Shown one piece after another: positions 1,567-53,233 of a stretch of 57,050 nucleotides of DNA. The notes under the pieces were generated by a model. That model was not told where the DNA came from, made no database searches, and worked only from the letters and a program-made list of their open reading frames with translations. The number at the start of each line of letters is the position of its first letter. The stretch's first letter is position 1. A program made the position numbers and the translations under genes. Source of the DNA: an uncultured Candidatus Poseidoniales archaeon (lineage in GTDB: Archaea; Thermoplasmatota; Poseidoniia; Poseidoniales; Thalassarchaeaceae); assembly GCA_963990035.1 (NCBI GenBank), contig CAXDMJ010000005.1, forward strand, positions 1 through 57,050. Direction: 5' to 3'.

Positions 1567-2048
1567 GATTCAATTTGGCTAGATAATTGTTCTAAAACTT
1601 TCATCCCTAATCTATGACTTTTAGTATCTACTCTCATCCCTAATCCAGGCACCATCAATAATGAATCGCTTTCATTTAAAGAAAATACTGGTATTCCAAC
1701 TCTTTCACCTAATAGTTCCACTTTTCTTTTACAAACATCTTTTTGAGCCGGCATATGCGACAACGAGCTAATATCTACTAGTAACATATCTCCTCTTGCT
1801 AATTCATTTTCTATCCCATCTAATGATATTCTATGGTAATCATCTGGTTTCATATAAATTACATTTCTTTTAGCTAAAGGAGTCAGTCTCTCGGTTCTTT
1901 CTGACCACAAGGAATCTCCTAGATCGTGAAAATCAGCTCTTGAATTTGATCTCGGACCTGGGTTTGCTGAACCAAGATTTTTCTTGACAGTTCTCGAAAT
2001 TGTTTTATTTGGATCAGGTAAACCTAGAAGCTTGAATAGATTAACCAT
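1560..2048 (-). CDS. sepF: Cell division protein SepF (archaeal type)
   Basis: N-terminal amphipathic MVNLFKLLG; core ELARGDMLLVDISSL...LLMVPGLGMRVD fits the archaeal SepF pattern. Confidence 0.7.
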   Translation of the reverse strand: MVNLFKLLGLPDPNKTISRTVKKNLGSANPGPRSNSRADFHDLGDSLWSERTERLTPLAKRNVIYMKPDDYHRISLDGIENELARGDMLLVDISSLSHMPAQKDVCKRKVELLGERVGIPVFSLNESDSLLMVPGLGMRVDTKSHRLGMKVLEQLSSQIESQ

Positions 2049-2056
2049 ATCTTGTC

Positions 2057-5000
2057 CTATTCCTCTTCACCAATTAGTTCTTCTATCTCTGATACGCTCA
2101 TAACCTCATTTAGTGATATTGTTTTGTCACTCAAAAAAGTATTTTCATCTTCGAGTAACTTTATTTGTTCCTCGCTTGTTCTCGTGTCTTCCTCTTTGAA
2201 ATCCATTAGTAAATCATCATCATCATCATTATTTTTTATAACAATATTTTCTTTATCTTCTTTGATTCTTTTTTTACTAATTTTTTGTTTTTGTTTTTCC
2301 TCACTGAATGGGTCATAATCAGGGTCGTCAAATGCATCATCCATTGATACTTTTCTTCTCGTTTGAGAAATATCTACAATTACTTCTTTCTTCTTTAGCA
2401 ATAATGCCATTCCAACAAGTAAAATCGTAATTAATAGAATTATGACTATACCTATAGGGCTGAGAATAAATCCAGATAATGAAAAAGGTATTTCTTGTAC
2501 CTTTATTTTCATTGTCATTGAATCTGTTTTATCACCATCATCTACAGTTAATTGTATTACTTTATCACCTGCATCATCGTATTTCCAAGATACTGTTTGT
2601 CCAGTGATATCTCTATCATTATTTTTATTGCCATCACCATCGCTATCTCTTGAAACATCCATATCCCAATAATATTTCATATTCTGCATGTCAAAATCGG
2701 AGTCAGTAGTGCCATTACCTGTAAGAATAATTTCATCGCCTGCCATTGGTTGAGATTCACTAATTGATAAACCAACATTTGGTTTCATATTTCTAACATC
2801 AATAGGTATCTCTATAGAAGCAATTTCACCATCATTATCAGTCACATGGAATCTTATTCTATCAGGCGCGGTATTTGAATCAGGCCATGAGTGTACTAAT
2901 TGATAAGATGCTACATCACAATCGTCATTTATTGTCCCCATATTATCTGAATTTGTATATGGGTCAAGATCATAACATGGAATAAGGCTCTGCATATCAT
3001 ATAATGTATCATCAACTATAATCGTCAATTCTATATTGTCATCTTCTTCAACTGGTAGTGGTTGAGAAAATGGACGAATAGTTGGTGGGAGATTATTTAC
3101 TTTGAACGGAACAGTCATTAAATCAGTACTTTCATCATTATTGTCAAATACTTGATAAGTTGCTATATGTTGTCCTTCTATGTTGTATGTATATACTATT
3201 GAACTAACAAGTCCTTCTTGTATATTTTGAACGTCTGGTTCATCTTCAGCATCTGGTTTCCATACATGCTGTAATGTACTCATATCGTTTTCAGAATCTT
3301 GAGCCCAACCTCTAATTGTCAATTGGTCTCCTTCATTTACATCATAAAGCCCGAATGAATTAGGGATAATTCTATTTCCATCAAAAAGAACCTCCCATTC
3401 CGGATCATATGGAGCAATATTAGTTACATCTATTGTGTATAACTCAGTAATTTCTTCTCCATCGTCATCCATTGCATTAACTTCTATGGTATATGGCCCC
3501 TCTTCGGTTGGTGTTACAGTACATTTAACGCCTAAAACACCTTGTTCACAAGGTGCATTCCAGATGATATCAACTGGAGCATCTGGATTTTGAGTATCTA
3601 AGTCAATTCTCTCAGTAATTTCAAATGTTACTGGAGTGAGTACTGGGCTGAATTCAGATTCTACAGATACTGTTATTTCTGGTGCTCTATTCAGTATTGT
3701 AATGTCACGACTTACTGAATCATAATCACTCTCTCCATCAGTTATTACCATATTAACTGTGAATATTCCATCATCATCCCATGTATATTCAAAAATACAA
3801 TCACTTTCTTGAGATGTCACAATATTTCCTGCTAAACTTTGTACTGAAAAGGTACACTCGAAACCTCCTCCATCTGGATCATATGAGTTGAGTCCATTAA
3901 AAGATACTTCATTTAGAGTCAATGATTCATCATACATTGTCAATAAAGCAATTGGTAATGATCCGATGAAAAGATTAAATTCACCTGCATTATTTATCAA
4001 ATCACCATCTTCTAAATCAATATTAAATTGAATACTAATCATTCCAAATGGCTGATTCGAAGGGACAACCCAAGATACCTCGACTCTTGATTCTTCCAGA
4101 CTCGACAAGGATGGAATACTTGTTTCTGTAACTGTTCCATCTGGTTCAGTTATCTGTAGAATTGATGGTGGTGATTCTCTTAATCCTTTATTTATAACTG
4201 GAATACTGAATGTCATCATATCATTTCTTATTCCTGTAAATCCTATGTTGTCATCTAAGGTGACAGTTGTGTTTAATCTTGTTCTTTCTACTGAAACACC
4301 TTCTTGATTTGCATATAAATCAATTTCATAAACCTCTGGATCAATTGTTATTGTCGATACGCCAATTGTCTTTGAAGTATCAATCCAAGCCAGAATGCCG
4401 TGACTTCCTAAATCTTCACAATTATTACAGAGTCCTTCAGAATTTGAATTATCCGCAGAATCTCCAGTATTAAATATGACATGTGCACTTCCATTAGATG
4501 CCGTAGTTAAAGTTTCTATTTCTCCATTAATCTCATATCTAAACTCTAATTGCTGATTTCCAATAGCGTTTCCATTATTATTTGTCACATTAATCCAAGC
4601 AGAGGTATCAATATTAATCGGTGATAAAGGAAATTCTACATCGATATTAATTATTTTTAGCCTACTAGATGCTTGATAAGATGATAATGAATGAACTGCA
4701 GTGAATCCCAAGCTTTCAACAGTTTCCATCTTTATATCTCCTCTAATAGCTGGACAAAACCATTTGTATCCCGTGTCATCTCCATCTCCATTTGTACTAG
4801 ATATATTGTATGATACAGCACAGCCACTATAACCAACTCCCGAAAATCCTTGACTTACTACTTCAAAATTTGAATTACTTTGCGACACACTATTTTCAGG
4901 TATATCTACGTAATCACTTTGGCCATCAAAAGTAGTAGTTGTAGTATAATCTTGACCCCATACCTCACCTACCGAGAGTGGGAAGTCATAGCCTTCAAGA

Positions 5001-5551
5001 GGTGGTGAATATGCTTGGTTAACTTCTAGTGTACCAACTGAGACGTCTACACACCACCACAAGAAATCTCTACAAAAATTAATCACAATAGTTGCTTCTT
5101 GAGATACTGTTGCAAGATCTGATGAGCGTATTACTGTTACAGTCTGCATAGTTACTTCTAAGTCACCCGGTTGACCATCTAAATTGATATTATTTGCCTC
5201 ATAATATCCATCTGCCTCTAACTTGTAAACAAGAGATGTAGTATTATCTACATCTTCTAAATAAATATCTGTAACTGTACTTTCTAATGTACCAGTTAGT
5301 TCTTCTAAATCAGTATTAACTCCAGATGCGATAATGAAATCTACCATGTCAAGATATCCATTATAATTCCATCTATCATTTATTTGCCATGATGGAATAT
5401 CTATCAAATTCGCATTTCTCGATATTGAATTGAAATTTATTTGGCTTTCTTCAATTTCAACAGTATTGTTTTCAGGAGTATAAATCCCAGTAAATGTAGA
5501 AATTAATAATAAAAATGTCAGTAGATAAACTGTCTCAGTCCGAGAGCGCAT
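2057..5551 (-). CDS. Large cell-surface PKD/Ig-like repeat protein with signal peptide, C-terminal TM anchor and acidic cytoplasmic tail
   Basis: PKD-like motifs (FNGLNSYDPDG, YTWDDDGIFTVNMVITD, WKYDDAGDKVIQLTVDDG), DxDGDG Ca-binding-like motif, TM IGIVIILLITILLVGMALLL followed by KKK. Confidence 0.8.
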   Translation of the reverse strand: MRSRTETVYLLTFLLLISTFTGIYTPENNTVEIEESQINFNSISRNANLIDIPSWQINDRWNYNGYLDMVDFIIASGVNTDLEELTGTLESTVTDIYLEDVDNTTSLVYKLEADGYYEANNINLDGQPGDLEVTMQTVTVIRSSDLATVSQEATIVINFCRDFLWWCVDVSVGTLEVNQAYSPPLEGYDFPLSVGEVWGQDYTTTTTFDGQSDYVDIPENSVSQSNSNFEVVSQGFSGVGYSGCAVSYNISSTNGDGDDTGYKWFCPAIRGDIKMETVESLGFTAVHSLSSYQASSRLKIINIDVEFPLSPINIDTSAWINVTNNNGNAIGNQQLEFRYEINGEIETLTTASNGSAHVIFNTGDSADNSNSEGLCNNCEDLGSHGILAWIDTSKTIGVSTITIDPEVYEIDLYANQEGVSVERTRLNTTVTLDDNIGFTGIRNDMMTFSIPVINKGLRESPPSILQITEPDGTVTETSIPSLSSLEESRVEVSWVVPSNQPFGMISIQFNIDLEDGDLINNAGEFNLFIGSLPIALLTMYDESLTLNEVSFNGLNSYDPDGGGFECTFSVQSLAGNIVTSQESDCIFEYTWDDDGIFTVNMVITDGESDYDSVSRDITILNRAPEITVSVESEFSPVLTPVTFEITERIDLDTQNPDAPVDIIWNAPCEQGVLGVKCTVTPTEEGPYTIEVNAMDDDGEEITELYTIDVTNIAPYDPEWEVLFDGNRIIPNSFGLYDVNEGDQLTIRGWAQDSENDMSTLQHVWKPDAEDEPDVQNIQEGLVSSIVYTYNIEGQHIATYQVFDNNDESTDLMTVPFKVNNLPPTIRPFSQPLPVEEDDNIELTIIVDDTLYDMQSLIPCYDLDPYTNSDNMGTINDDCDVASYQLVHSWPDSNTAPDRIRFHVTDNDGEIASIEIPIDVRNMKPNVGLSISESQPMAGDEIILTGNGTTDSDFDMQNMKYYWDMDVSRDSDGDGNKNNDRDITGQTVSWKYDDAGDKVIQLTVDDGDKTDSMTMKIKVQEIPFSLSGFILSPIGIVIILLITILLVGMALLLKKKEVIVDISQTRRKVSMDDAFDDPDYDPFSEEKQKQKISKKRIKEDKENIVIKNNDDDDDLLMDFKEEDTRTSEEQIKLLEDENTFLSDKTISLNEVMSVSEIEELIGEEE

Positions 5552-44194: not shown

Positions 44195-46264
44195 TTACCA
44201 TCCAAGATTATCTTGACTAAATTCACAATTCCCTTCACAAGTATCCACTATTGAACCATTTGAAAGGAATTGGAAAGCCATTTCTCTTGCAATTGGTAAT
44301 GCGCCTATTGCATTATGAGCAGGATGAGGTTCTTGTCCATATTCATTCCCTACAGGGGGTTGGATATATCCTCCATCGAAGAAAACTCCTACTGATCCAA
44401 TATGTCCATCTTCAACTATATCCAGCCCGTATGGGGTAATAGTTGAGGAATCAAGCAATGGAATCCCTCCTGTCCTCATCATTCTTGATGAAGAAATATT
44501 TGATATTTGCAAATCAGATATCGAAAACAAAGTCATTAGTTCGAAAGGTTCTATCTCGTCTAAATAACCATTTTCCCTTATACTTAGGAATGTATCTGTT
44601 TCAGTTGAATCCCATAGTGATTGTATTATCGACATTGCAACTGCTCTATCTAATTGATTATCATAACCATATTCGCTAGCGAAAATAAAGTGAAATGCAT
44701 CATATTGAGTGCATCTCTCGATTATATGTGAAAAAGAAGAACCTCCCGCCCATAGTACTCCTCTATTCAGGTCTGGTGAGAGACCTATTATTGAGGGTCC
44801 TCTTAGTGCGCCATTTGAGTATCCTGTATATGTGGGGTTATTGGTATCAATTAGTTTGTATCCATCATCGGTATAATATTCGGGTAAATCTGAGCAAACA
44901 CCCATGAATGTTTTTATCATGACTACTTGATTAATCATGGCTTGTTCTAATCTTTCAGCTTGGTGCTGGAAATATTGCATGTTTAATACTGCATATTCAA
45001 TACTAGTACTGTCATCATCAGACCAGCCATAGAAACTAGTTCCTAACATTGCAACATTGTTTTCATTGGCCCAGCCACTTAGCCCAGAGGTGTTACCATT
45101 ACCAAGGAAACCATGACCCCATATTGTTATTTTAGCTGCTTCTTGAATATCTACTGAAGAGCCAGGTATTACTAACCAGAATGGGATTTCTCTATTTTCT
45201 ACGAAAACTGGAGTACGATCTTCCGTTGAGGTTCTACGTATTAGTGCAGGTGGGAAAAATGATTCAGTATATTGTGGAGCCGTAAAAGTCCCAGTAATTA
45301 GCCAATGACTTGTATTTTCTTCAATCATAACTTTTGTATTAGATTCAATTTTACATCCAATGCCGTTACCAGTTCTTTCTAGAGCATCATTCCTCATAGA
45401 TAGTAATGGTCCAATCATCGATTCAGTAGAAGATGTATGAAAACTCCATGCAGTTTGTAGTTCATTAATTGAATATTCAGTATTTTCAGAAATCCAATTA
45501 AATAATTCTTTGAATTCTCCTCTCCTATTCTCAATATCCGGCGATGTTGTGATTACATCATCGCGGAGTGCTGCAAATCCTTCAGGAGTTGGTATGGATT
45601 GATTATTTTCATCCATTAAACCAGTTAATAATACTACATAAGAGGTATTGTGATCTAATGCCTCAACAGTCCTCATATGAATTATAGTAGGCTGATCAAT
45701 TTCCGATCTAGCATCTAGTTCAACCCAATGAGCTACTAATTCTCCATTAAATTGATTAATTATTACAGTAGAATGCCCTGAGTCTAAACTTTTCCCTATA
45801 CTGTACTGACCTGCTAATTCTGAAACATCAGGTTCTACTGTGAAAGCAGTCATTATTTGTGTATTTGGGCTGGCACCATCCATTTGATTTAGGATAGGTA
45901 TTTCTATCGGGCTAACTGTACCTGAACTAGGTATGGTATTCTGAGAATAATGAATTCTTTTTCCAGTATTCGTAGTATCATCATCTATCAAGAATGCATC
46001 CGAAGGAAATGGTAACATGCAATGTATAGGATTAGTGTTATCGCATCCTTCAATATGCGGTATTGTTATTGGATTATCAAGTGTGTTTTCATCTGTATAA
46101 TCGCATGAACCATCATCATTTGTTGCCTCAATATCATAATTTTTAGCATTCTCATCCATACATCCTAATATTTCATCAATATCTGTATTTTCATCAGAAT
46201 TTGCTGTACAACCGGAGAGAATAATACTGCAACAAAATAGTACCGCAAGTGTTTTTTTCATCAT
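44195..46264 (-). CDS. Secreted lipoprotein, alpha/beta-hydrolase (lipase/depolymerase-like)
   Basis: Lipobox LSGC; GCMD..A.NY...A..DDGSC module; CMLPFPSD; HGFLG oxyanion motif; GYSNG nucleophile elbow. Confidence 0.65.
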   Translation of the reverse strand: MMKKTLAVLFCCSIILSGCTANSDENTDIDEILGCMDENAKNYDIEATNDDGSCDYTDENTLDNPITIPHIEGCDNTNPIHCMLPFPSDAFLIDDDTTNTGKRIHYSQNTIPSSGTVSPIEIPILNQMDGASPNTQIMTAFTVEPDVSELAGQYSIGKSLDSGHSTVIINQFNGELVAHWVELDARSEIDQPTIIHMRTVEALDHNTSYVVLLTGLMDENNQSIPTPEGFAALRDDVITTSPDIENRRGEFKELFNWISENTEYSINELQTAWSFHTSSTESMIGPLLSMRNDALERTGNGIGCKIESNTKVMIEENTSHWLITGTFTAPQYTESFFPPALIRRTSTEDRTPVFVENREIPFWLVIPGSSVDIQEAAKITIWGHGFLGNGNTSGLSGWANENNVAMLGTSFYGWSDDDSTSIEYAVLNMQYFQHQAERLEQAMINQVVMIKTFMGVCSDLPEYYTDDGYKLIDTNNPTYTGYSNGALRGPSIIGLSPDLNRGVLWAGGSSFSHIIERCTQYDAFHFIFASEYGYDNQLDRAVAMSIIQSLWDSTETDTFLSIRENGYLDEIEPFELMTLFSISDLQISNISSSRMMRTGGIPLLDSSTITPYGLDIVEDGHIGSVGVFFDGGYIQPPVGNEYGQEPHPAHNAIGALPIAREMAFQFLSNGSIVDTCEGNCEFSQDNLGW

Positions 46265-46293: not shown

Positions 46294-46827
46294 CTAGTTT
46301 TCTGATACTACTACTTTGACAGGTCTCAATACTCGGTCATGAAACATATATCCGTCTTCAATAATCTCTAAAACAACTCCTGGATTTTTATCCTCAGGAG
46401 CTGGTATTACAGCAATAGCCTCCATGAATGATGGATTAAATTCTTTATCTAATGCTTCTATTTTCACAATGCCTTCATTCTCAAATGTAGTTTTCAGCAT
46501 TTTTAAAGTCAGATTCATTCCTTCAATGAATTTTTCCGAATCATTATTTTTAATATCTAATACTTTTTCTAGATTATCAACTACAGGAAGTATATTAAAT
46601 GCCAAATTCATACCAGCAAATTTCACTAGTATATTCCTTTCTCTTGCGTATCTTTGCCTAATATTTGCAATCTCAGCAGTATCATATATTTTCTCTTTTT
46701 GTAATTCTTCTATTTGTTCTTCAAGAATTTTCATTTGGTCGATTTCATCATTTTCTTCAAGAATAATATCTTCTGATAATTCCTCTATTGGTTCATCGAC
46801 CTCGTCCGTCATGGCCTTGGGTTTCAA
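46294..46827 (-). CDS. grpE: Nucleotide exchange factor GrpE
   Basis: AEIANIRQR, ILPVVDNLE, FNPSFMEA, GYMFHDRVLRPVKVVV. Start may be 46812. Confidence 0.95.
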   Translation of the reverse strand: MKPKAMTDEVDEPIEELSEDIILEENDEIDQMKILEEQIEELQKEKIYDTAEIANIRQRYARERNILVKFAGMNLAFNILPVVDNLEKVLDIKNNDSEKFIEGMNLTLKMLKTTFENEGIVKIEALDKEFNPSFMEAIAVIPAPEDKNPGVVLEIIEDGYMFHDRVLRPVKVVVSEN

Positions 46828-46855: not shown

Positions 46856-48634
46856 TTATTCAAGATAGAAGTATTCGCCAGCTACTTTTTGTTCTCTATC
46901 TTTACGACTATCTGGTTTATTTATACGTGGTCTATGAGATTCATGGTCTCTTCTAAATGTGACATTTACATCTTTCAAAAATTTATTCATACCTTTACGC
47001 AGAGTTAGAGGTCCTACTGCATTTCCATGCTTCCCTCCCTCACCATCAAAAACTAGCAATGAGTCACTCACTATGTCAATGAAGTAAATGTCATGATCAA
47101 TTACCATAGCTGCTTTCTCATTACTTTCCATTGTTCTTCTAATTGCCTTGGCTGCTTCCATTCTTGCATTCGCATCAAGATGTGCACTAGGTTCATCAAG
47201 TAGATACAAATCTGCTTCTCTCCCTAGGCAAATAACTATACTAACTGCTTGTAATTCTCCTCCTGAAAGTTTTTTAGCCTTTAGTTCTAGTAATTGATCA
47301 ACTTGTAATGGCCTTACTACTTGAGTATGGAATTCCCCAGTTCTCCATTTATTCCCTAATTCCGTATTCAACCAATCTTCCACACTTCCTTCAAAATCAG
47401 TATGGACATGTTGAGGTTTATACGATACTTTTGCATCCATTGTACACCATCCTTGATCAGGTTCTATTTCACCTGCTATCATCTTAACCATGGTAGTTTT
47501 TCCTGTAGCATTAGGTCCAACAACACCTACAACTTCAGCACTTCTAACCATGCCTTCACCAGTTTTAAGTTTGAATGTTCCAAGAGTTTTTTCCATATCT
47601 CCCCACTTTAAGATTGGTAAACCAACTCCTTCACCTCTAACTCTTCCTCTCAAAAATTGTATTGGTTTATCTCTTATCCTTACATTTTCTTCGGGTAAGA
47701 AACCTTCTAGATATGCGTTAATTGCACTTCGGGTAGATCTTGCAGGAGTAAATATTCCAAATGCTGCACGTTCTCCATAGACTACATGAAGTAAATCACA
47801 GAGGACATCCAGTATTGCTAAGTCGTGTTCAACAACAATCACTCTTTTACCCATTTCAGCTAAGTCTTGAATGATTTTCACCATTCTCATACGTTCATGA
47901 ATATCTAGGTAAGATGATGGTTCATCGAAGAAGTATACCTCTGCTTCTTTCAACATAGTTGCACAGATTGCAACTCTTTGTAATTCTCCTCCTGATAACT
48001 GACCTATATTCCGATCTAATATATGATTAATAGCTAATAATTCTGCATATTCATCCAGTTCTCCCCTATCATCGACTCTTTCAAGTAATTCTCGTGCTTT
48101 ACCATCAAATATCTTAGGTAATTTATCAATATATTGTGGCTTTACTGCAATACTAACCTTATCATCTGCAACTAATTTCAGATAATCTCTTAATTCTCCT
48201 CTAGGAAATGATTCAATTATATCATCCCATTCTGCAGAATTAATTGTCCAGTCTCCTAGGTTCGGTTGTATAGATCCTGAAAGGAGATTTATTGCAGTAG
48301 ATTTCCCCATGCCATTTGGTCCTAATATACCAACAACTTGTTTTTCCCTTGGTGCTGGTAATCTGAAAAGTCTAAATCCATTCTGTCCATATCTATGAGT
48401 CATCTCACCTTCTAATTCTTCAGGTAAATTTGTAATTATTAAAGCATCAAAAGGACATTTTGTAATACATATACCACACCCTATACACAAAGGCTCTGAA
48501 ACAATTGGTTTTCCACTTGAATCATCGAGAATAATACATTCGATTCCATTCCGGACAGGTGGACAAAATGCCCAACATTCTGCATTACATTTCTCAGGGC
48601 TACACCTGTCTTCCAGAAGGACAGCCACTCTCAT
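46856..48634 (-). CDS. rli: Ribosome recycling ATPase ABCE1/RLI
   Basis: N-terminal Fe-S CSPEKCNAECWAFCP and CIGCGICITKCP; two ABC cassettes (GPNGMGKST, LSGGELQ twice). Confidence 0.97.
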   Translation of the reverse strand: MRVAVLLEDRCSPEKCNAECWAFCPPVRNGIECIILDDSSGKPIVSEPLCIGCGICITKCPFDALIITNLPEELEGEMTHRYGQNGFRLFRLPAPREKQVVGILGPNGMGKSTAINLLSGSIQPNLGDWTINSAEWDDIIESFPRGELRDYLKLVADDKVSIAVKPQYIDKLPKIFDGKARELLERVDDRGELDEYAELLAINHILDRNIGQLSGGELQRVAICATMLKEAEVYFFDEPSSYLDIHERMRMVKIIQDLAEMGKRVIVVEHDLAILDVLCDLLHVVYGERAAFGIFTPARSTRSAINAYLEGFLPEENVRIRDKPIQFLRGRVRGEGVGLPILKWGDMEKTLGTFKLKTGEGMVRSAEVVGVVGPNATGKTTMVKMIAGEIEPDQGWCTMDAKVSYKPQHVHTDFEGSVEDWLNTELGNKWRTGEFHTQVVRPLQVDQLLELKAKKLSGGELQAVSIVICLGREADLYLLDEPSAHLDANARMEAAKAIRRTMESNEKAAMVIDHDIYFIDIVSDSLLVFDGEGGKHGNAVGPLTLRKGMNKFLKDVNVTFRRDHESHRPRINKPDSRKDREQKVAGEYFYLE

Positions 48635-48702: not shown

Positions 48703-49953
48703 TCAAACTGCGAAGAAACGAAATCTCACATAGATATATGCTGCCAAGCCAATTTTTTCTGTTTTTGACAATTGAGTTCTTTCAGAGAAAACGTCCCCGT
48801 CATTTTTCTCAATTTTCTTCATAATAGAATGATAAAATGTAGTCATTGCAGCAGGAGAATATCTACTTGATTTGTCAAGAAGTGGGAATAATTTCATTCC
48901 TCTTTCACGATATTTATCTGCCCGTGAAATGAATTCTGAAACAAATGGTTTCCACCCTGGATGCTTCAAGATTTCTTTGCCATTTCTTAAATCATCTTCA
49001 GAAATTCCGTATCTAGCAAGATCTTCTATTGGTAGATATATTCGATCACGTTCGATATCTTCAGCAACATCCCTTAGTATATTTGTAAGCTGCATATATA
49101 TGCCCCAAGACTCAGCATATTCTATTGCTTTTTTATCGTTATATCCATATATTTCAATGCAAACAAGACCTACTGTTGATGCGACTTTGTAGCAGTATGA
49201 GTAAAGGTCTTCAAACGTATCATATCTATTACGATGGAAATCTTCCTCCATCCCACTAATCATATCATCGAGAAGTTGTCTATTTATCCCATATTTATTG
49301 ACAGTATCTTTCAAAGCAATAAATATAGGATCTGTAGATGTTAATTTCCCATATGCTGTTGATAATTTTTTCCGATAATAGAATAATTGTGACATTTTAT
49401 CATTATAAGATGATCTTTCTAATACAGGTCTTCCATCAATTAATCTTTCAATTTTTGTCCTATAATCTATTGACTCTTGATTATTCTCTGAACCCCCTGG
49501 GAAATAATCAACATAATCTCCATCTGCGATGTCATCTGCACGTCTACAAAATGCGTAATAAGCCATAATTGATTTTCTTTCTTCTTCAGGTAGATATTTG
49601 AATGAATGATAAAAATTACCCGCTTCTCTACGTGTTAATTCTTCACAATAATTGTACGCGGATTCTACTATTTCTGGAGGCATACTATTCTCCGACCAAA
49701 TTGCTGCATCGATATGGGTGAATGGATTTACAAGTTCTCCTCTTGAACCAATTACACCCATGAAAAGTGCTCCCTCTCTCAATGTTTCTAATGCAGTTAT
49801 ACTAATTGCATGAACCGCCTCTTTCGTCACATTAACTGCAGTTCTAACCTTCTCAATAGGTGGAGCATCTGAGTCAGCATCAACAAGAGTGATACTCTTG
49901 CCACGGTCATAATCAACCATAGGCTCGGACCCATTAACTTGCCCTCCCGTCAT
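48703..49953 (-). CDS. Phytoene/squalene synthase family, CrtB/HpnD-like, with N-terminal extension
   Basis: AYNYCEELTRREAGNFY, YAFCRRADDIAD, YCYKVASTVGL, QLTNILRDVAED..RDRIYLP. Confidence 0.88.
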   Translation of the reverse strand: MTGGQVNGSEPMVDYDRGKSITLVDADSDAPPIEKVRTAVNVTKEAVHAISITALETLREGALFMGVIGSRGELVNPFTHIDAAIWSENSMPPEIVESAYNYCEELTRREAGNFYHSFKYLPEEERKSIMAYYAFCRRADDIADGDYVDYFPGGSENNQESIDYRTKIERLIDGRPVLERSSYNDKMSQLFYYRKKLSTAYGKLTSTDPIFIALKDTVNKYGINRQLLDDMISGMEEDFHRNRYDTFEDLYSYCYKVASTVGLVCIEIYGYNDKKAIEYAESWGIYMQLTNILRDVAEDIERDRIYLPIEDLARYGISEDDLRNGKEILKHPGWKPFVSEFISRADKYRERGMKLFPLLDKSSRYSPAAMTTFYHSIMKKIEKNDGDVFSERTQLSKTEKIGLAAYIYVRFRFFAV

Positions 49954-50027
49954 ACTACTTCGACATCAAGCCCAATTGATTCGTTCTTGAACCCCCCGCT
50001 ATATTGGGTAATGTATAACTCTACGAT

Positions 50028-51083
50028 TTAATTGATATTAATCATTTTTTTTGGATTCTTACGGGTTAAACATAATAAAATAGATTTCTTCATTATTTTC
50101 TTTATTTCAGGTCTTAAAACTTTAATTCTTTTATCCGGGTCTAGAATATTTCCTTCTTTCAATAAAATTAATGTTCTTTGTCCTATTAATACTGGCAGCA
50201 TACAAGATAATCTGAGTCGATATTGGTTTTTTGGCAACATTTCAATATATTCTACTGCATTATCTAGGTAAGAACTAGCAATCTGAATATAATGTTTGAA
50301 TAACGGAGTAAATGTGTCTATATTTTCCTTATCTAACAAATCCTCAGGTGTCAGATTATATTCTGAGAGTTTACTCCTAGGTAAATAGCACCTACCCATC
50401 TGTAAATCTTGAGGCAAATCTCTTAAAATATTTATTAATTGTAAAGATTTACCGAAATTTACTGCTTTTTCAAAAATTACTTTCTTTTCTTCCTCTTCCA
50501 TTTTGAAAAGATGATCTAATGACATATGTGTCCAAAATTCACCTACACAACCCGCTACTCTATATGTATAATCATCTAGTTGTTCTTCATTATCTAATGA
50601 AACTATTTGTTCCCCTGATGCATCAGTAAATCTCTCTAAATCGAGAGACTGTCCTCCAATGATTATATCTAAACAAGTTCTTATTTTCTCCTTGTCTAAA
50701 TCAGTGAAATTATTTGATTTTTCAAAATAATTAACTGGTATTTCTGCATCATATAGTAACTCTGCTTCAGACTTATTTTCTTGAATAATTGCTAGTTCTT
50801 TAAAATCGGGTAATTTTTGATTTGCATTTTGAATTCTAATATTATATTCTCTAAGTAATTGAAGTAATTGTTTATTATCTCCTACTGTGGAATCCGCAAT
50901 TGTATCTGCTAGACGTGCTAACAAATAGGTCAGACCAATATGTCTACGTATTTTTTTGGGTAGAACTTTAAGACTTAAAAAAAATGATCTAGAAGTTCCC
51001 TCAAGTAATGTATCAATCCTTTTTTCAGACATACGAACCTCTAGTGCGCCGTCTTCCATGGACTTTGAGGGAATGTCTGGCAT
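50028..51083 (-). CDS. Squalene synthase-like (FdfT/SQS-type) isoprenoid synthase
   Basis: TSRSFFLSL, YLLARLADTIAD, YTYRVAGCVGEFWT, LQLINILRDLPQD...GRCYLP. Confidence 0.88.
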   Translation of the reverse strand: MPDIPSKSMEDGALEVRMSEKRIDTLLEGTSRSFFLSLKVLPKKIRRHIGLTYLLARLADTIADSTVGDNKQLLQLLREYNIRIQNANQKLPDFKELAIIQENKSEAELLYDAEIPVNYFEKSNNFTDLDKEKIRTCLDIIIGGQSLDLERFTDASGEQIVSLDNEEQLDDYTYRVAGCVGEFWTHMSLDHLFKMEEEEKKVIFEKAVNFGKSLQLINILRDLPQDLQMGRCYLPRSKLSEYNLTPEDLLDKENIDTFTPLFKHYIQIASSYLDNAVEYIEMLPKNQYRLRLSCMLPVLIGQRTLILLKEGNILDPDKRIKVLRPEIKKIMKKSILLCLTRKNPKKMININ

Positions 51084-51104: not shown

Positions 51105-52025
51105 TTATCTTAGTCCAGCTTCTTTTAATGCTTTCACTAATACATTTCCTATTTCTGAAGGGTCTCTGGCAACATAAATTCCTGCTGCTTCGAAAGCAGC
51201 GAATTTCTCTTGAGCTGTGCCCTTTCCACCTGAAATTATCGCTCCAGCATGTCCCATTCTTTTGCCCGGTGGTGCTGTTGATCCTGCTACAAACCCTACT
51301 ATCGGTTTACTCATATTCTTTGATGCCCATTCTGCTGCCTCCTCTTCTGCAGATCCGCCAATTTCACCTATCATTACTATTGCCTCAGTTTGTGGGTCGG
51401 CCTCGAAAGCAGCAAGGCAATCAATAAATCCTGTTCCATTTACGGGATCTCCTCCGATGCCAACGCATGTTGACTGTCCTTCATCAACACTCATTGTTTG
51501 TGCAACAGCTTCGTAAGTTAAAGTTCCAGATTTTGAAACAATTCCAATTCTTCCTTTTGCATGTATGAATCCAGGCATTATTCCTACCTTACACCCACCA
51601 TTCTCACCAGGTGTTATTATTCCTGGACAATTTGGTCCAATTAATCTTACATTTTGATATTGGTCTACTCGTGCAACTGCTCTAATCATATCTAATATCG
51701 GAATTCCTTCAGTAATGCAGACAATTATTCCGCCACCGTTCTGTTCAAAAGCGTCTGCGGCTTCAATAATAGCGGCAGCAGCAAATTTTGCTGGAACATA
51801 TATCACACTCACATCAGCATTAGTTGCATCCAATCCCTCTGATACTGAATTAAATACAGGGACATTCTTATTTGGTAACTCTACAATTTGTCCACCTTTT
51901 CCAGGCGTTACTCCTCCTACTACGTTTGTTTTATATTCGTCCATCATTGTTCCATGGAATGTACCTTGTTTACCAGTTATTCCTTGAATTAGGACTTTAC
52001 TTTCTTCATGAATCCAAATCGACAT
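51105..52025 (-). CDS. sucD: Succinyl-CoA synthetase alpha subunit
   Basis: [46 protein letters not shown]. Confidence 0.97.
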
Positions 52026-53233
52026 TATTTCTCACCTCTAGTTAATTGAACAATCTTTTCGGCACCTTCAGCCAAAGTACTAACTGTATGTACATTCAAA
52101 TTACAATTATCTAGGACTGCTTTACCTTCTACATGATTAGTTCCTGAAAATCTTACTACTAATGGTACTTCTAATCCAAGTTCATTTGATGCTTCAATGA
52201 CGCTTCTTGCAACCATATCACATTGAATAATTCCTCCAAATATATTTACTAGAATCCCTTCGACATTATCATCTTCAAGAATTATTCCAAAGGCGGTAGT
52301 TATCGATTCTCTTGTAGCACCTCCCCCAATATCAAGGAAATTTGCTGGTTCACCTCCATATAATTTTATTACATCCATGGATGCCATTGCTAAACCAGCA
52401 CCATTTACTAAGCAACCAATATTCCCATCTAATTTGACATAAGATAGCCCGTGTTCATGGGCACGAATTTCAACTTCTTCTTCCTCCGAATGATCCCGCA
52501 TTTCATCCATCCATGGATGCCTATATGACGCATTATCATCGAAACTAACCTTTGCATCCAGTGCAATCATTTCTCCTGAGTTTGAACGTACAAGAGGGTT
52601 AATCTCTATCATTGCACAATCTTTTTCTACAAACATTCTTGATAATGATGAAAGCATTGACACTAAGTCTTTCTTTGATTCACCAACTAGTCCTAGTTGA
52701 TTTGCCATATTTTCAGCATCTTTTATGTCTAGGCCGTTAACCGGATGAGTCCAAATTTTGTATATTGCTTCTGGCGTATTTTCGGCTACTTCCTCAATAT
52801 CTACTCCACCTTCTTTTGAAGCCATGATGAGGACTGATTTTGCCTCTCTATCAACTAGAAGGGCAAGATAATATTCATGTGCTATGGAACATCCTGCTTC
52901 TATGTATAAGTTGTTCACAATTTTCCCCTCAGGTCCTGTTTGTTTAGTTACAAGATTTCTATTGATTATGTTACTTGCATAAGTCTCAACTTCATCTCTG
53001 GAGAAAGCTATTTTCACTCCTCCTTCCATAACTAAGTTTCCAGTTTTTGTGTCATAAAGATTACCTTTACCACGCCCTCCTGCGTGAATTTGTGACTTTA
53101 CTGCAACTACTTTAGACCCTAAGTTATCATATGCAGATAACGCATCACTTACTGTTTTACAGTGTATTCCATCTTGTACTTTTACACCTGCTTCTTTGAA
53201 CAGGATTTTCCCTTGATACTCGTGAATATTCAT
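52025..53233 (-). CDS. sucC: Succinyl-CoA synthetase beta subunit
   Basis: [48 protein letters not shown]. Confidence 0.97.

Follow-up and report, generated by a model that had tools for sequence, protein, structure and literature searches.

Do two adjacent head-to-head prenyl synthase genes of a planktonic archaeon work together or apart, and what do they make? The two genes, called P1 and P2 here, lie in a 57,050-nucleotide stretch of DNA from a Poseidoniales archaeon (Marine Group II, Thalassarchaeaceae), referred to below as the window. The archaea of Marine Group II are uncultured and count among the most abundant in the plankton, and little is known of their membrane lipids. An initial annotation of the window left two alternatives for the pair, namely, parallel branches toward C30 squalene and C40 phytoene, or a two-enzyme relay making an unknown hydrocarbon. 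The analysis presented here points to a squalene locus: it is probable that P1 passes presqualene diphosphate (PSPP) to P2, that P2 turns it into squalene, and that the product of the relay is a C30 compound.

Organization of the locus

P2 (50028-51083, minus strand; 351 amino acids), a Sqs-type head-to-head prenyl synthase and the proposed functional replacement of HpnC and HpnE, is separated by a spacer of 74 bp (49954-50027) from P1 (48703-49953, minus strand; 416 amino acids), an HpnD orthologue and presumed presqualene diphosphate synthase. Upstream, the conserved neighbours are sucD (51105-52025) and sucC (52025-53233); downstream, they are RLI/ABCE1 (46856-48634) followed by GrpE (46294-46827). 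All four genes are on the minus strand, and Thalassarchaeaceae keep the order sucC-sucD-[P2 or hpnE-hpnC]-P1. The initial annotation had described two co-oriented genes 74 bp apart, lying between sucCD and RLI, with no hpnE, crtI or cyclase nearby, and this description agrees with our results: none of these three was found within the 15 kb flanking P1 and P2, and crtI, crtY and blh were not found in the window.

Each protein was also said to carry both Asp-rich motifs, and it does. In P1, the first motif, DDIAD (D140-D144; 49522-49536, minus strand), is invariant in 22 orthologues, and D295, E298 and D299 of the second, DVAED (D295-D299; 49057-49071, minus strand), are invariant in the same set. 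In P2, the first motif, DTIAD (D60-D64; 50892-50906, minus strand), is invariant in 14 homologues, and the second, DLPQD (D222-D226; 50406-50420, minus strand), has invariant D222, P224 and D226. Because P1 and P2 are 26% identical and belong to different major clades, they are not recent duplicates, a possibility that could be ruled out; the earlier view of the pair as phylogenetically distinct enzymes, one SQS-like and the other HpnD/CrtB-like, is supported by their separate positions in the tree.

P1 groups with HpnC and HpnD

P1 matched the Pfam family SQS_PSY (PF00494) with 227.9 bits (cut-off 26). Its best NCBIfam model was HpnD (TIGR03465) with 219.6 bits, which is under the equivalog cut-off of 278.6, and this match was broken in two by a clade-specific insert. 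HpnD is the enzyme that joins two farnesyl diphosphates into presqualene diphosphate. In the tree, P1 was placed, at group level, with HpnC, HpnD and the third paralogue of the genome, P3 (support 99/89), and was sister to the P3-type paralogues. It was apart from CrtM and Sqs, and also from the CrtB references, which were those of Pantoea, Roseobacter and Thermus.

These results bear on the idea of parallel branches, in which P2 would make C30 squalene and P1 would be a CrtB phytoene synthase for the beta-carotene and retinal of proteorhodopsin. The CrtB models NF045686, NF042419 and NF045921 gave 191, 113 and 131 bits with P1, and the highest of these scores, on the cyanobacterial model, speaks for a CrtB function; however, all three are under their cut-offs (550, 480 and 500, respectively), the 191 bits far so, and the grouping of P1 with HpnC/HpnD, away from the three CrtB references, speaks against it. 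Gene content and gene order in this genome and its relatives, described below, make this idea very improbable.

Two features set P1 apart from the reference enzymes, and both had been noticed in the initial annotation. The first is an N-terminal extension of about 90 amino acids (about residues 1-95; 49669-49953, minus strand) with a conserved core at about 37-86, which in the alignment is missing from bacterial HpnD, HpnC, CrtB and CrtM references and from P3. Twelve of its residues (R37, V40, A46, S51, T53, A54, E60, L74, P77, F78, A83 and W86) are invariant in 22 P1 orthologues, the extension is also found on the P1 of loci of the hpnE-hpnC type, and AF2 predicts in it only a long helix at 32-69, with low confidence. 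The second is an insert of about 30-35 amino acids after DDIAD (about residues 146-182; 49408-49518, minus strand, by alignment with reference enzymes). This insert is missing from the bacterial HpnD, HpnC, CrtB and CrtM references and is common to P1 and P3, and is thus characteristic of the HpnD-like clade of Poseidoniales. If the pair should work on longer substrates, a reading treated below as scarcely probable, the N-terminal module and the insert could belong to such an adaptation or to a surface on which the partner enzyme docks.

P2 has the fold of squalene synthase

P2 matched SQS_PSY with 159.7 bits (cut-off 26) and was under every NCBIfam equivalog cut-off, with 68.4 bits on the Sqs/FDFT1 model TIGR01559 (cut-off 286.75) and 77.8 bits on the HpnC model TIGR03464 (cut-off 250.45). 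In the tree, it fell outside the HpnC clade and within a Sqs superclade (support 100/99) that includes the human and haloarchaeal proteins, where it was sister to Sqs-like proteins of Burkholderiales. A profile of the P2 family scored CrtM and SQS about equally among PDB sequences, so that only the tree and the comparison of folds tell the two apart. The best PDB fold match of the AF2 model of P2 (pLDDT 89), as found with Foldseek, was human SQS over the full length (TMq 0.72-0.75, versus 0.58-0.63 for CrtM), and the model shows the complete fold of SQS, with the C-terminal helices not found in CrtM.

The motifs DTIAD and DLPQD of P2 align with DTLED and DYLED of human SQS, respectively, without the fourth-position Glu of the eukaryotic enzymes. 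The strings SRSF and VAGCVGEFW are present, and all residues that can be aligned to catalytic residues of human SQS are kept: the Tyr equivalent to Y171, both DxxxD motifs and the SRSF flap. These residues thus give no sign that P2 has lost the first half-reaction. A conserved basic stretch (R319, I320, K321 and R324) lies at the presumed site of the NADPH loop of human SQS.

Since P2 keeps the aligned catalytic residues, it may carry out both half-reactions alone, and P1 would then have a different role. In such a case P2 would convert farnesyl diphosphate to squalene by itself, P1 would do a separate job, for example, making dehydrosqualene or phytoene for a crtN/crtI-type desaturase or giving rise to PSPP-derived lipids, and the adjacency of the two genes would be a leftover of an hpnCDE operon. 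The Sqs fold of P2 is in keeping with self-sufficiency, and Sqs is normally a single-enzyme route (PMC7306690). We nevertheless regard this explanation as unlikely, though one that has to be taken seriously, on account of the distribution and arrangement of the genes.

P2 and hpnE-hpnC alternate at one site

Among 81 sampled Poseidoniales genomes, P1 was present in all and P2 in 70. Nine genomes had HpnC only, none had both P2 and HpnC, and two were unassigned owing to contig ends; the mutual exclusivity of P2 and HpnC in the 81 genomes is highly significant (Fisher p = 2e-10). In nine of the 11 genomes without P2, hpnE-hpnC were found immediately upstream of P1, in place of P2, and two of these nine have the flanks of the window (sucC-sucD-hpnE-hpnC-P1-RLI-grpE). 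In these nine relatives, unlike in the window itself, the P1 orthologue is thus the third gene of an hpnE-hpnC-P1 operon, a position that also argues against P1 being a CrtB phytoene synthase. At the two loci that were scanned, HpnE gave 304 and 295 bits and HpnC 288 and 294 bits, all above the NCBIfam equivalog cut-offs (283 and 250, respectively).

A profile search with P2 recovered 74 Poseidoniales-type loci from both families of the order, and in 72 of them P2 and P1 are adjacent. They are mostly co-oriented and are divergent in one subgroup; P1 thus stays beside its partner even after a change of orientation, which speaks against a self-sufficient P2. The sqs and hpnE-hpnC cassettes are interleaved on the P1 tree, the supported branches of which need at least five switches, and one P1 of the hpnE-hpnC type is 96% identical to a P1 of the sqs type. 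In 68 of 72 loci, P1 is the better conserved of the two proteins. Being universal in the 81 genomes and more conserved than P2, P1 is not a relic.

Because the two cassettes share the same slot, exclude each other and are interleaved, P1 is, as judged from the sequences, the orthologue of HpnD, and P2 is presumably the substitute for both HpnC and HpnE. Examination of synteny across Poseidoniales, as suggested in the initial annotation, thus yielded both a conserved P2-P1 neighbourhood and an alternative occupant of the P2 slot.

The same pairing outside Poseidoniales

The combination of HpnD with a Sqs of the P2 clade recurs in other groups. Marine Verrucomicrobia have an HpnD-like gene and a Sqs of the P2 clade, and plasmids and chromids of Burkholderiales carry hpnD-shc, with no hpnC or hpnE nearby, plus a gene for a Sqs-like protein that is 35-38% identical to P2. 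The Verrucomicrobia matches are not archaeal contigs that were mis-binned, an explanation ruled out by their bacterial flanks (KdsB, CTP synthase, Maf and GcvP on the contig L069, the sole one scanned) and by the HpnD-like gene in the same genomes. This recurrence is a further point against a self-sufficient P2, and the branch of Sqs found in company with HpnD in all three groups (Poseidoniales, Verrucomicrobia and Burkholderiales) may represent a PSPP-reducing partner of HpnD rather than a stand-alone squalene synthase.

The distribution of relatives also bears on the chain length. Archaeal lipid synthesis goes via GGPP, and it is conceivable, though scarcely probable, that the pair takes GGPP or mixed C15/C20 substrates and makes C40 or C35 analogues of squalene (similar to lycopaoctaene or lycopersene), with the work split at an intermediate resembling PSPP and the products serving as membrane hydrocarbons. 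Such a route would suit an archaeon with a C20-dominated isoprenoid pool, P1 and P2 are too divergent for any C30-specific equivalog cut-off, and the clade-specific insert of P1 and P3 lies beside the first Asp-rich motif. However, the hpnE and hpnC that are interchangeable with P2 pass the curated cut-offs of a C30 pathway (two loci scanned), and the nearest relatives of P2 come from Burkholderiales that produce hopanoids and from Verrucomicrobia, for which squalene is the product to be expected.

Desaturase, rhodopsin and the third paralogue

Beyond the window, the genome contains a rhodopsin gene and a single crtI-family desaturase on another contig (C41), where it adjoins P3, the third SQS_PSY paralogue. 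The rhodopsin and the desaturase speak for parallel branches. The designation of the C41 gene as crtN-type follows PMC9907078. We could not find hpnE, blh or a triterpene cyclase anywhere in the genome, and blh is also absent from 77 of the 81 genomes of the order. It is P3, not P1, that is linked to the desaturase: P3 occurs solely where the desaturase occurs (47/47; over the complete table, Fisher p = 7e-11). P1, by comparison, is present in 33 genomes without rhodopsin and is kept in 21 genomes that have neither the desaturase nor P3; rhodopsin, too, is missing from 20 of these 21. The C40 phytoene/retinal branch through P1 proposed in the initial annotation does not agree with the HpnD position of P1 in operons, the 21 desaturase-less genomes and the missing blh; as a phytoene synthase of the retinal pathway, P1 was rejected on its phyletic pattern, its operon context in relatives and the lack of blh.

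The retention of P1 in all 81 genomes, these 21 among them, also speaks against a self-sufficient P2. In favour of a separate job for P1 are 13 genomes with the desaturase and P1 and without P3, in which P1 might therefore also feed carotenoid synthesis. If squalene is the substrate of the desaturase, however, as in the squalene route of PMC9907078, these 13 genomes need no extra synthase.

Proposed pathway and its significance

Of the two alternatives of the initial annotation, a relay-type coupling fits best, given the order-wide conservation of the pair and the position of P2 in the slot of hpnE-hpnC. The coupling of the two enzymes is thus retained, but an unknown hydrocarbon is not required, squalene being the parsimonious product. 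In the proposed pathway, P1, as HpnD, would condense two farnesyl diphosphates to PSPP, and P2 would rearrange and reduce PSPP with NAD(P)H, thereby providing the step from PSPP to squalene in place of HpnC and HpnE. The squalene (C30) would serve as a membrane hydrocarbon and, in genomes with a crtN-type desaturase, also as a precursor of C30 carotenoids. Three points of this pathway are inferred: the reaction that each enzyme catalyses, the 30-carbon length of the product, and the reliance of P2 on P1 for PSPP.

The locus indicates that a squalene-type pathway belongs to the core of the entire order, whether or not light-related genes are present. It amounts to a clean natural experiment in which one Sqs-type gene and hpnE-hpnC are interchangeable at one site while HpnD stays constant. 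If the relay is real, squalene would have a third route, a hybrid one, and 'sqs' and 'hpnD' matches would have to be reread wherever genomes are surveyed for hopanoid, sterol or C30-carotenoid potential. If P2 should be self-sufficient, the finding would shrink to an ordinary and already published gene replacement.

Comparison with known systems

The occurrence of HpnD together with Sqs in Poseidoniia, Verrucomicrobia, Acidobacteria and Beta/Gammaproteobacteria has been published, as has the idea that Sqs replaced HpnCDE (Santana-Molina 2020, PMC7306690; 2022, PMC9907078). The conserved adjacency of sqs and hpnD and the replacement in the same slot add detail to this gene content: in Poseidoniales, sqs is directly beside hpnD across the order, exactly in the slot of hpnE-hpnC. 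A same-slot swap of sqs for hpnE-hpnC is not described in the text of these two papers.

The bacterial three-enzyme pathway of HpnC, HpnD and HpnE (Pan et al. 2015, as outlined in PMC7306690) resembles the present system in that P1 is an orthologue of its HpnD member and that the full hpnE-hpnC-hpnD operon occupies this very locus in 9 of the 81 genomes. It differs in that the window has a single Sqs-type gene instead of hpnC and hpnE. P1 also departs from the bacterial HpnD references by its N-terminal extension and its insert, and by its score below the HpnD cut-off.

With human SQS (1EZF, 3VJ8 and 3WEF), P2 shares the Sqs clade, the full-length fold, the SRSF flap, the Tyr before VAG and both DxxxD motifs, although the two proteins are only about 21% identical and the motifs read DTIAD and DLP(E/Q)D in P2 instead of DTLED and DYLED. 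Whereas the canonical Sqs works alone, P2 has an HpnD gene as its companion in every case. A precedent for such a division of labour is the alga Botryococcus braunii, in which, as reported by Niehaus and colleagues in 2011, the squalene-synthase-like enzymes SSL-1 and SSL-2/SSL-3 are split into a PSPP maker and an NADPH-dependent converter. In Poseidoniales, too, the half-reactions would be divided between two proteins of the SQS family; however, the Botryococcus enzymes arose recently as paralogues inside the SQS clade of eukaryotes, whereas P1 and P2 come from two different ancient clades, HpnD and Sqs.

Gene pair and flanking genes

Two genes spaced 74 bp apart on the minus strand of the window encode the HpnD/CrtB-like protein P1 (48703-49953; 416 aa) and the Sqs-like protein P2 (50028-51083; 351 aa). 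Both match the Pfam family SQS_PSY far above its gathering score, and each contains two Asp-rich motifs that are invariant across orthologues. None of the NCBIfam equivalog cut-offs was reached by either protein: P1 scored highest against HpnD (219.6; cut-off, 278.6), ahead of cyanobacterial CrtB (191; cut-off, 550) and HpnC (171.5; cut-off, 250.45), and the scores of P2 were all weak (HpnD, 84; HpnC, 78; squalene synthase, 68). Housekeeping genes on the same strand flank the pair, namely sucC and sucD upstream and RLI/ABCE1 and GrpE downstream. Based on alignment, P1 has two segments that are absent from bacterial HpnD, HpnC, CrtB and CrtM references: the N-terminus is extended by about 90 residues (residues 1-95; 49669-49953), and the DDIAD motif is directly followed by an insert that spans about residues 148-182. 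The initial annotation had described the pair accurately in its coordinates, co-orientation, spacing, motifs, extension, insert and flanks.

No match to the extension exists in Pfam or NCBIfam, and in the AlphaFold model it forms a long helix, with low confidence only. Its core (R37, S51, T53, A54, E60, L74, P77, F78, A83 and W86) is kept order-wide, and it is found with either partner, Sqs or HpnC/HpnE. The window also contains a 689-aa ORF (44195-46264, minus strand) with a lipoprotein-like signal sequence (Cys after a hydrophobic N-terminus) and no Pfam match at E <= 0.001.

Phylogeny and fold

An IQ-TREE tree was built from 62 sequences, with labelled references taken from annotated plasmid records and the human SQS chain. 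Burkholderiales proteins annotated as farnesyl-diphosphate farnesyltransferase share a clade with the P2-type proteins (support, 100/99); the sister of this clade comprises human SQS and haloarchaeal Sqs-like proteins, and the whole Sqs superclade is supported at 100/99. P1-type proteins are the sister clade (99/94) of those related to P3, a third SQS_PSY paralogue encoded on another contig of the same genome. Both belong to a group that includes the HpnC and HpnD of bacteria (99/89) and are separate from CrtM and from the CrtB references, which were those of Pantoea, Roseobacter and Thermus. Along its full length, the AlphaFold model of P2 (pLDDT 89) matches squalene synthases from human, fungi and trypanosomes (TMq 0.72-0.75; about 0.6 for CrtM). 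The tree and the fold of P2 thus confirm the pair as SQS-like plus HpnD-like, as first suggested.

Synteny across Poseidoniales

A P2-homologue profile detected 570 related stretches in species-representative genomes, and the best 80 of these were examined. Among them, P1 directly adjoins P2 in 72 of 74 Poseidoniales-type loci; in the remaining two, the contig ends on the flank where P1 would be. The full order sucC-sucD-P2-P1-RLI-grpE is conserved in Thalassarchaeaceae. P1 and P2 are mostly co-oriented; one Poseidoniales subgroup has them in divergent orientation with a spacing of about 230 bp, so that a local inversion has not separated the two genes. The divergent loci (L028, L040, L043, L049, L057, L063, L064, L066 and L075) have sucCD on the opposite side.

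The other six of the best 80 are marine Verrucomicrobia contigs with a P2 homologue and no neighboring P1 (Verrucomicrobia/Pedosphaeraceae MAG contigs L041, L045, L046, L048, L056 and L069). Because these homologues (52% identity) are nested within the Poseidoniales P2-type proteins, and the flanking genes are clearly bacterial on L069, the one contig scanned, they point to an inter-domain transfer of this Sqs. A full-length HpnD-like gene exists elsewhere in four of the six genomes, and in a fifth a second SQS_PSY gene is represented by a fragment.

Exchange with hpnE-hpnC and the predicted pathway

Among 81 Poseidoniales genomes that were at least 80% complete, P1-type genes were found in all 81 and P2 in 70. 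Nine of the 11 genomes lacking P2 have hpnE and then hpnC in the slot upstream of P1, and in the other two the P1 neighborhoods end at contig ends. Two genomes (G023 and G065) share the flanks of the window: sucC-sucD-hpnE-hpnC-P1-RLI-grpE. At the two loci scanned, these neighbors exceed the equivalog cut-offs for HpnE (304 and 295 versus 283) and HpnC (288 and 294 versus 250). Order-wide, HpnC above cut-off was recognized in exactly those nine genomes, none of which has P2 (P2 only, 70; HpnC only, 9; both, 0; undecided, 2; Fisher p = 2e-10). The two cassette types alternate across a tree of the 81 P1 proteins, with seven switches by parsimony, at least five of them forced by well-supported branches. 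The hpnE-hpnC type is frequently at the base of clades, and one P1 of this type is 96% identical to a P1 of the sqs type. P2 is therefore an Sqs-type gene that has replaced hpnE and hpnC in their own position, either more than once or through recombination.

In Poseidoniales the orthologue of HpnD is P1, which falls below the HpnD cut-off because of its insert and divergence. HpnC and HpnE convert presqualene diphosphate (PSPP) to squalene, so the simplest reading is that P2 supplies this step: P1 would make PSPP, and P2 would reduce it to squalene. P2 could instead be self-sufficient and P1 redundant, as P2 retains all the catalytic residues that could be aligned with those of human SQS. However, the swap was never followed by loss of HpnD, whose evolution is slower than that of P2 (P1 is the better conserved in 68 of 72 loci), which favors the relay from P1 to P2. 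The activities, the cofactor and the chain length in this scheme are inferred.

The third paralogue and the desaturase

We could not find HpnE above cut-off, blh or a triterpene cyclase in the window's assembly (1.41 Mb in 87 contigs; about 85% complete), the last being absent from the order as well. The sole crtI-family desaturase (TIGR02734, 480 bits) lies on contig C41, 1 kb from P3 (340 aa), which is 41% identical to P1 and has the insert and no N-terminal extension. This region (locus L004) comprises 1831-3426 (+), 3423-4010 (+) and 4448-5470 (-). A 195-aa lipoprotein-like ORF without an NCBIfam match lies between P3 and the desaturase, an arrangement shared by the other two genomes of the genus. 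The genome has one rhodopsin (C12:7547-8218).

Among the 81 genomes, the desaturase (above cut-off) exists in 60, rhodopsin in 48, P3-type genes in 47 and blh (TIGR03753) in four, where the contig with blh also bears a further crtI/crtB cluster of bacterial type. P3 is confined to desaturase-bearing genomes (47/47), often directly beside the desaturase. Both are absent from 21 genomes, 20 of which also lack rhodopsin; because P1 is kept in all 21 and P2 in 16, the P1-P2 pair is a core feature of Poseidoniales that does not depend on light-related genes. The initial interpretation is partly supported: it stands for the Sqs-like/HpnD-like pair, but its parallel phytoene branch is not supported, as P1 persists without a desaturase. 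The desaturase itself is found in 47 of 48 rhodopsin-bearing versus 13 of 33 rhodopsin-less genomes (Fisher p = 2e-9), which reflects either a functional link between the two or their both being traits of the photic zone.

Since the order lacks a triterpene cyclase, the predicted squalene would serve as a membrane hydrocarbon. Where a desaturase is present, it could also feed C30 carotenoid formation by the squalene route that was proposed previously (PMC9907078), which would account for the 13 genomes that have a desaturase and no P3.

Comparison with known systems

Gene content and the idea of replacement are already known from the work of Santana-Molina et al. [quoted passage not shown] Added here are the following points: sqs adjoins hpnD across the order; the two cassettes occupy one slot, exclude each other and have switched repeatedly; HpnD is retained in every genome; and two HpnD paralogues are distinguished, P1 with its N-terminal module and P3 with the desaturase. 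In Burkholderiales replicons (L094, Mycetohabitans rhizoxinica plasmid pBRH01; matches in Burkholderia, Caballeronia and Cupriavidus), hpnD is immediately upstream of shc, with no hpnC or hpnE nearby, and a separate Sqs-like gene is 35-38% identical to P2. Like Marine Group II, these replicons combine HpnD with a P2-clade Sqs. In short, the locus is real and order-wide, a predicted hybrid HpnD plus Sqs squalene locus that represents a variant of the known squalene routes.
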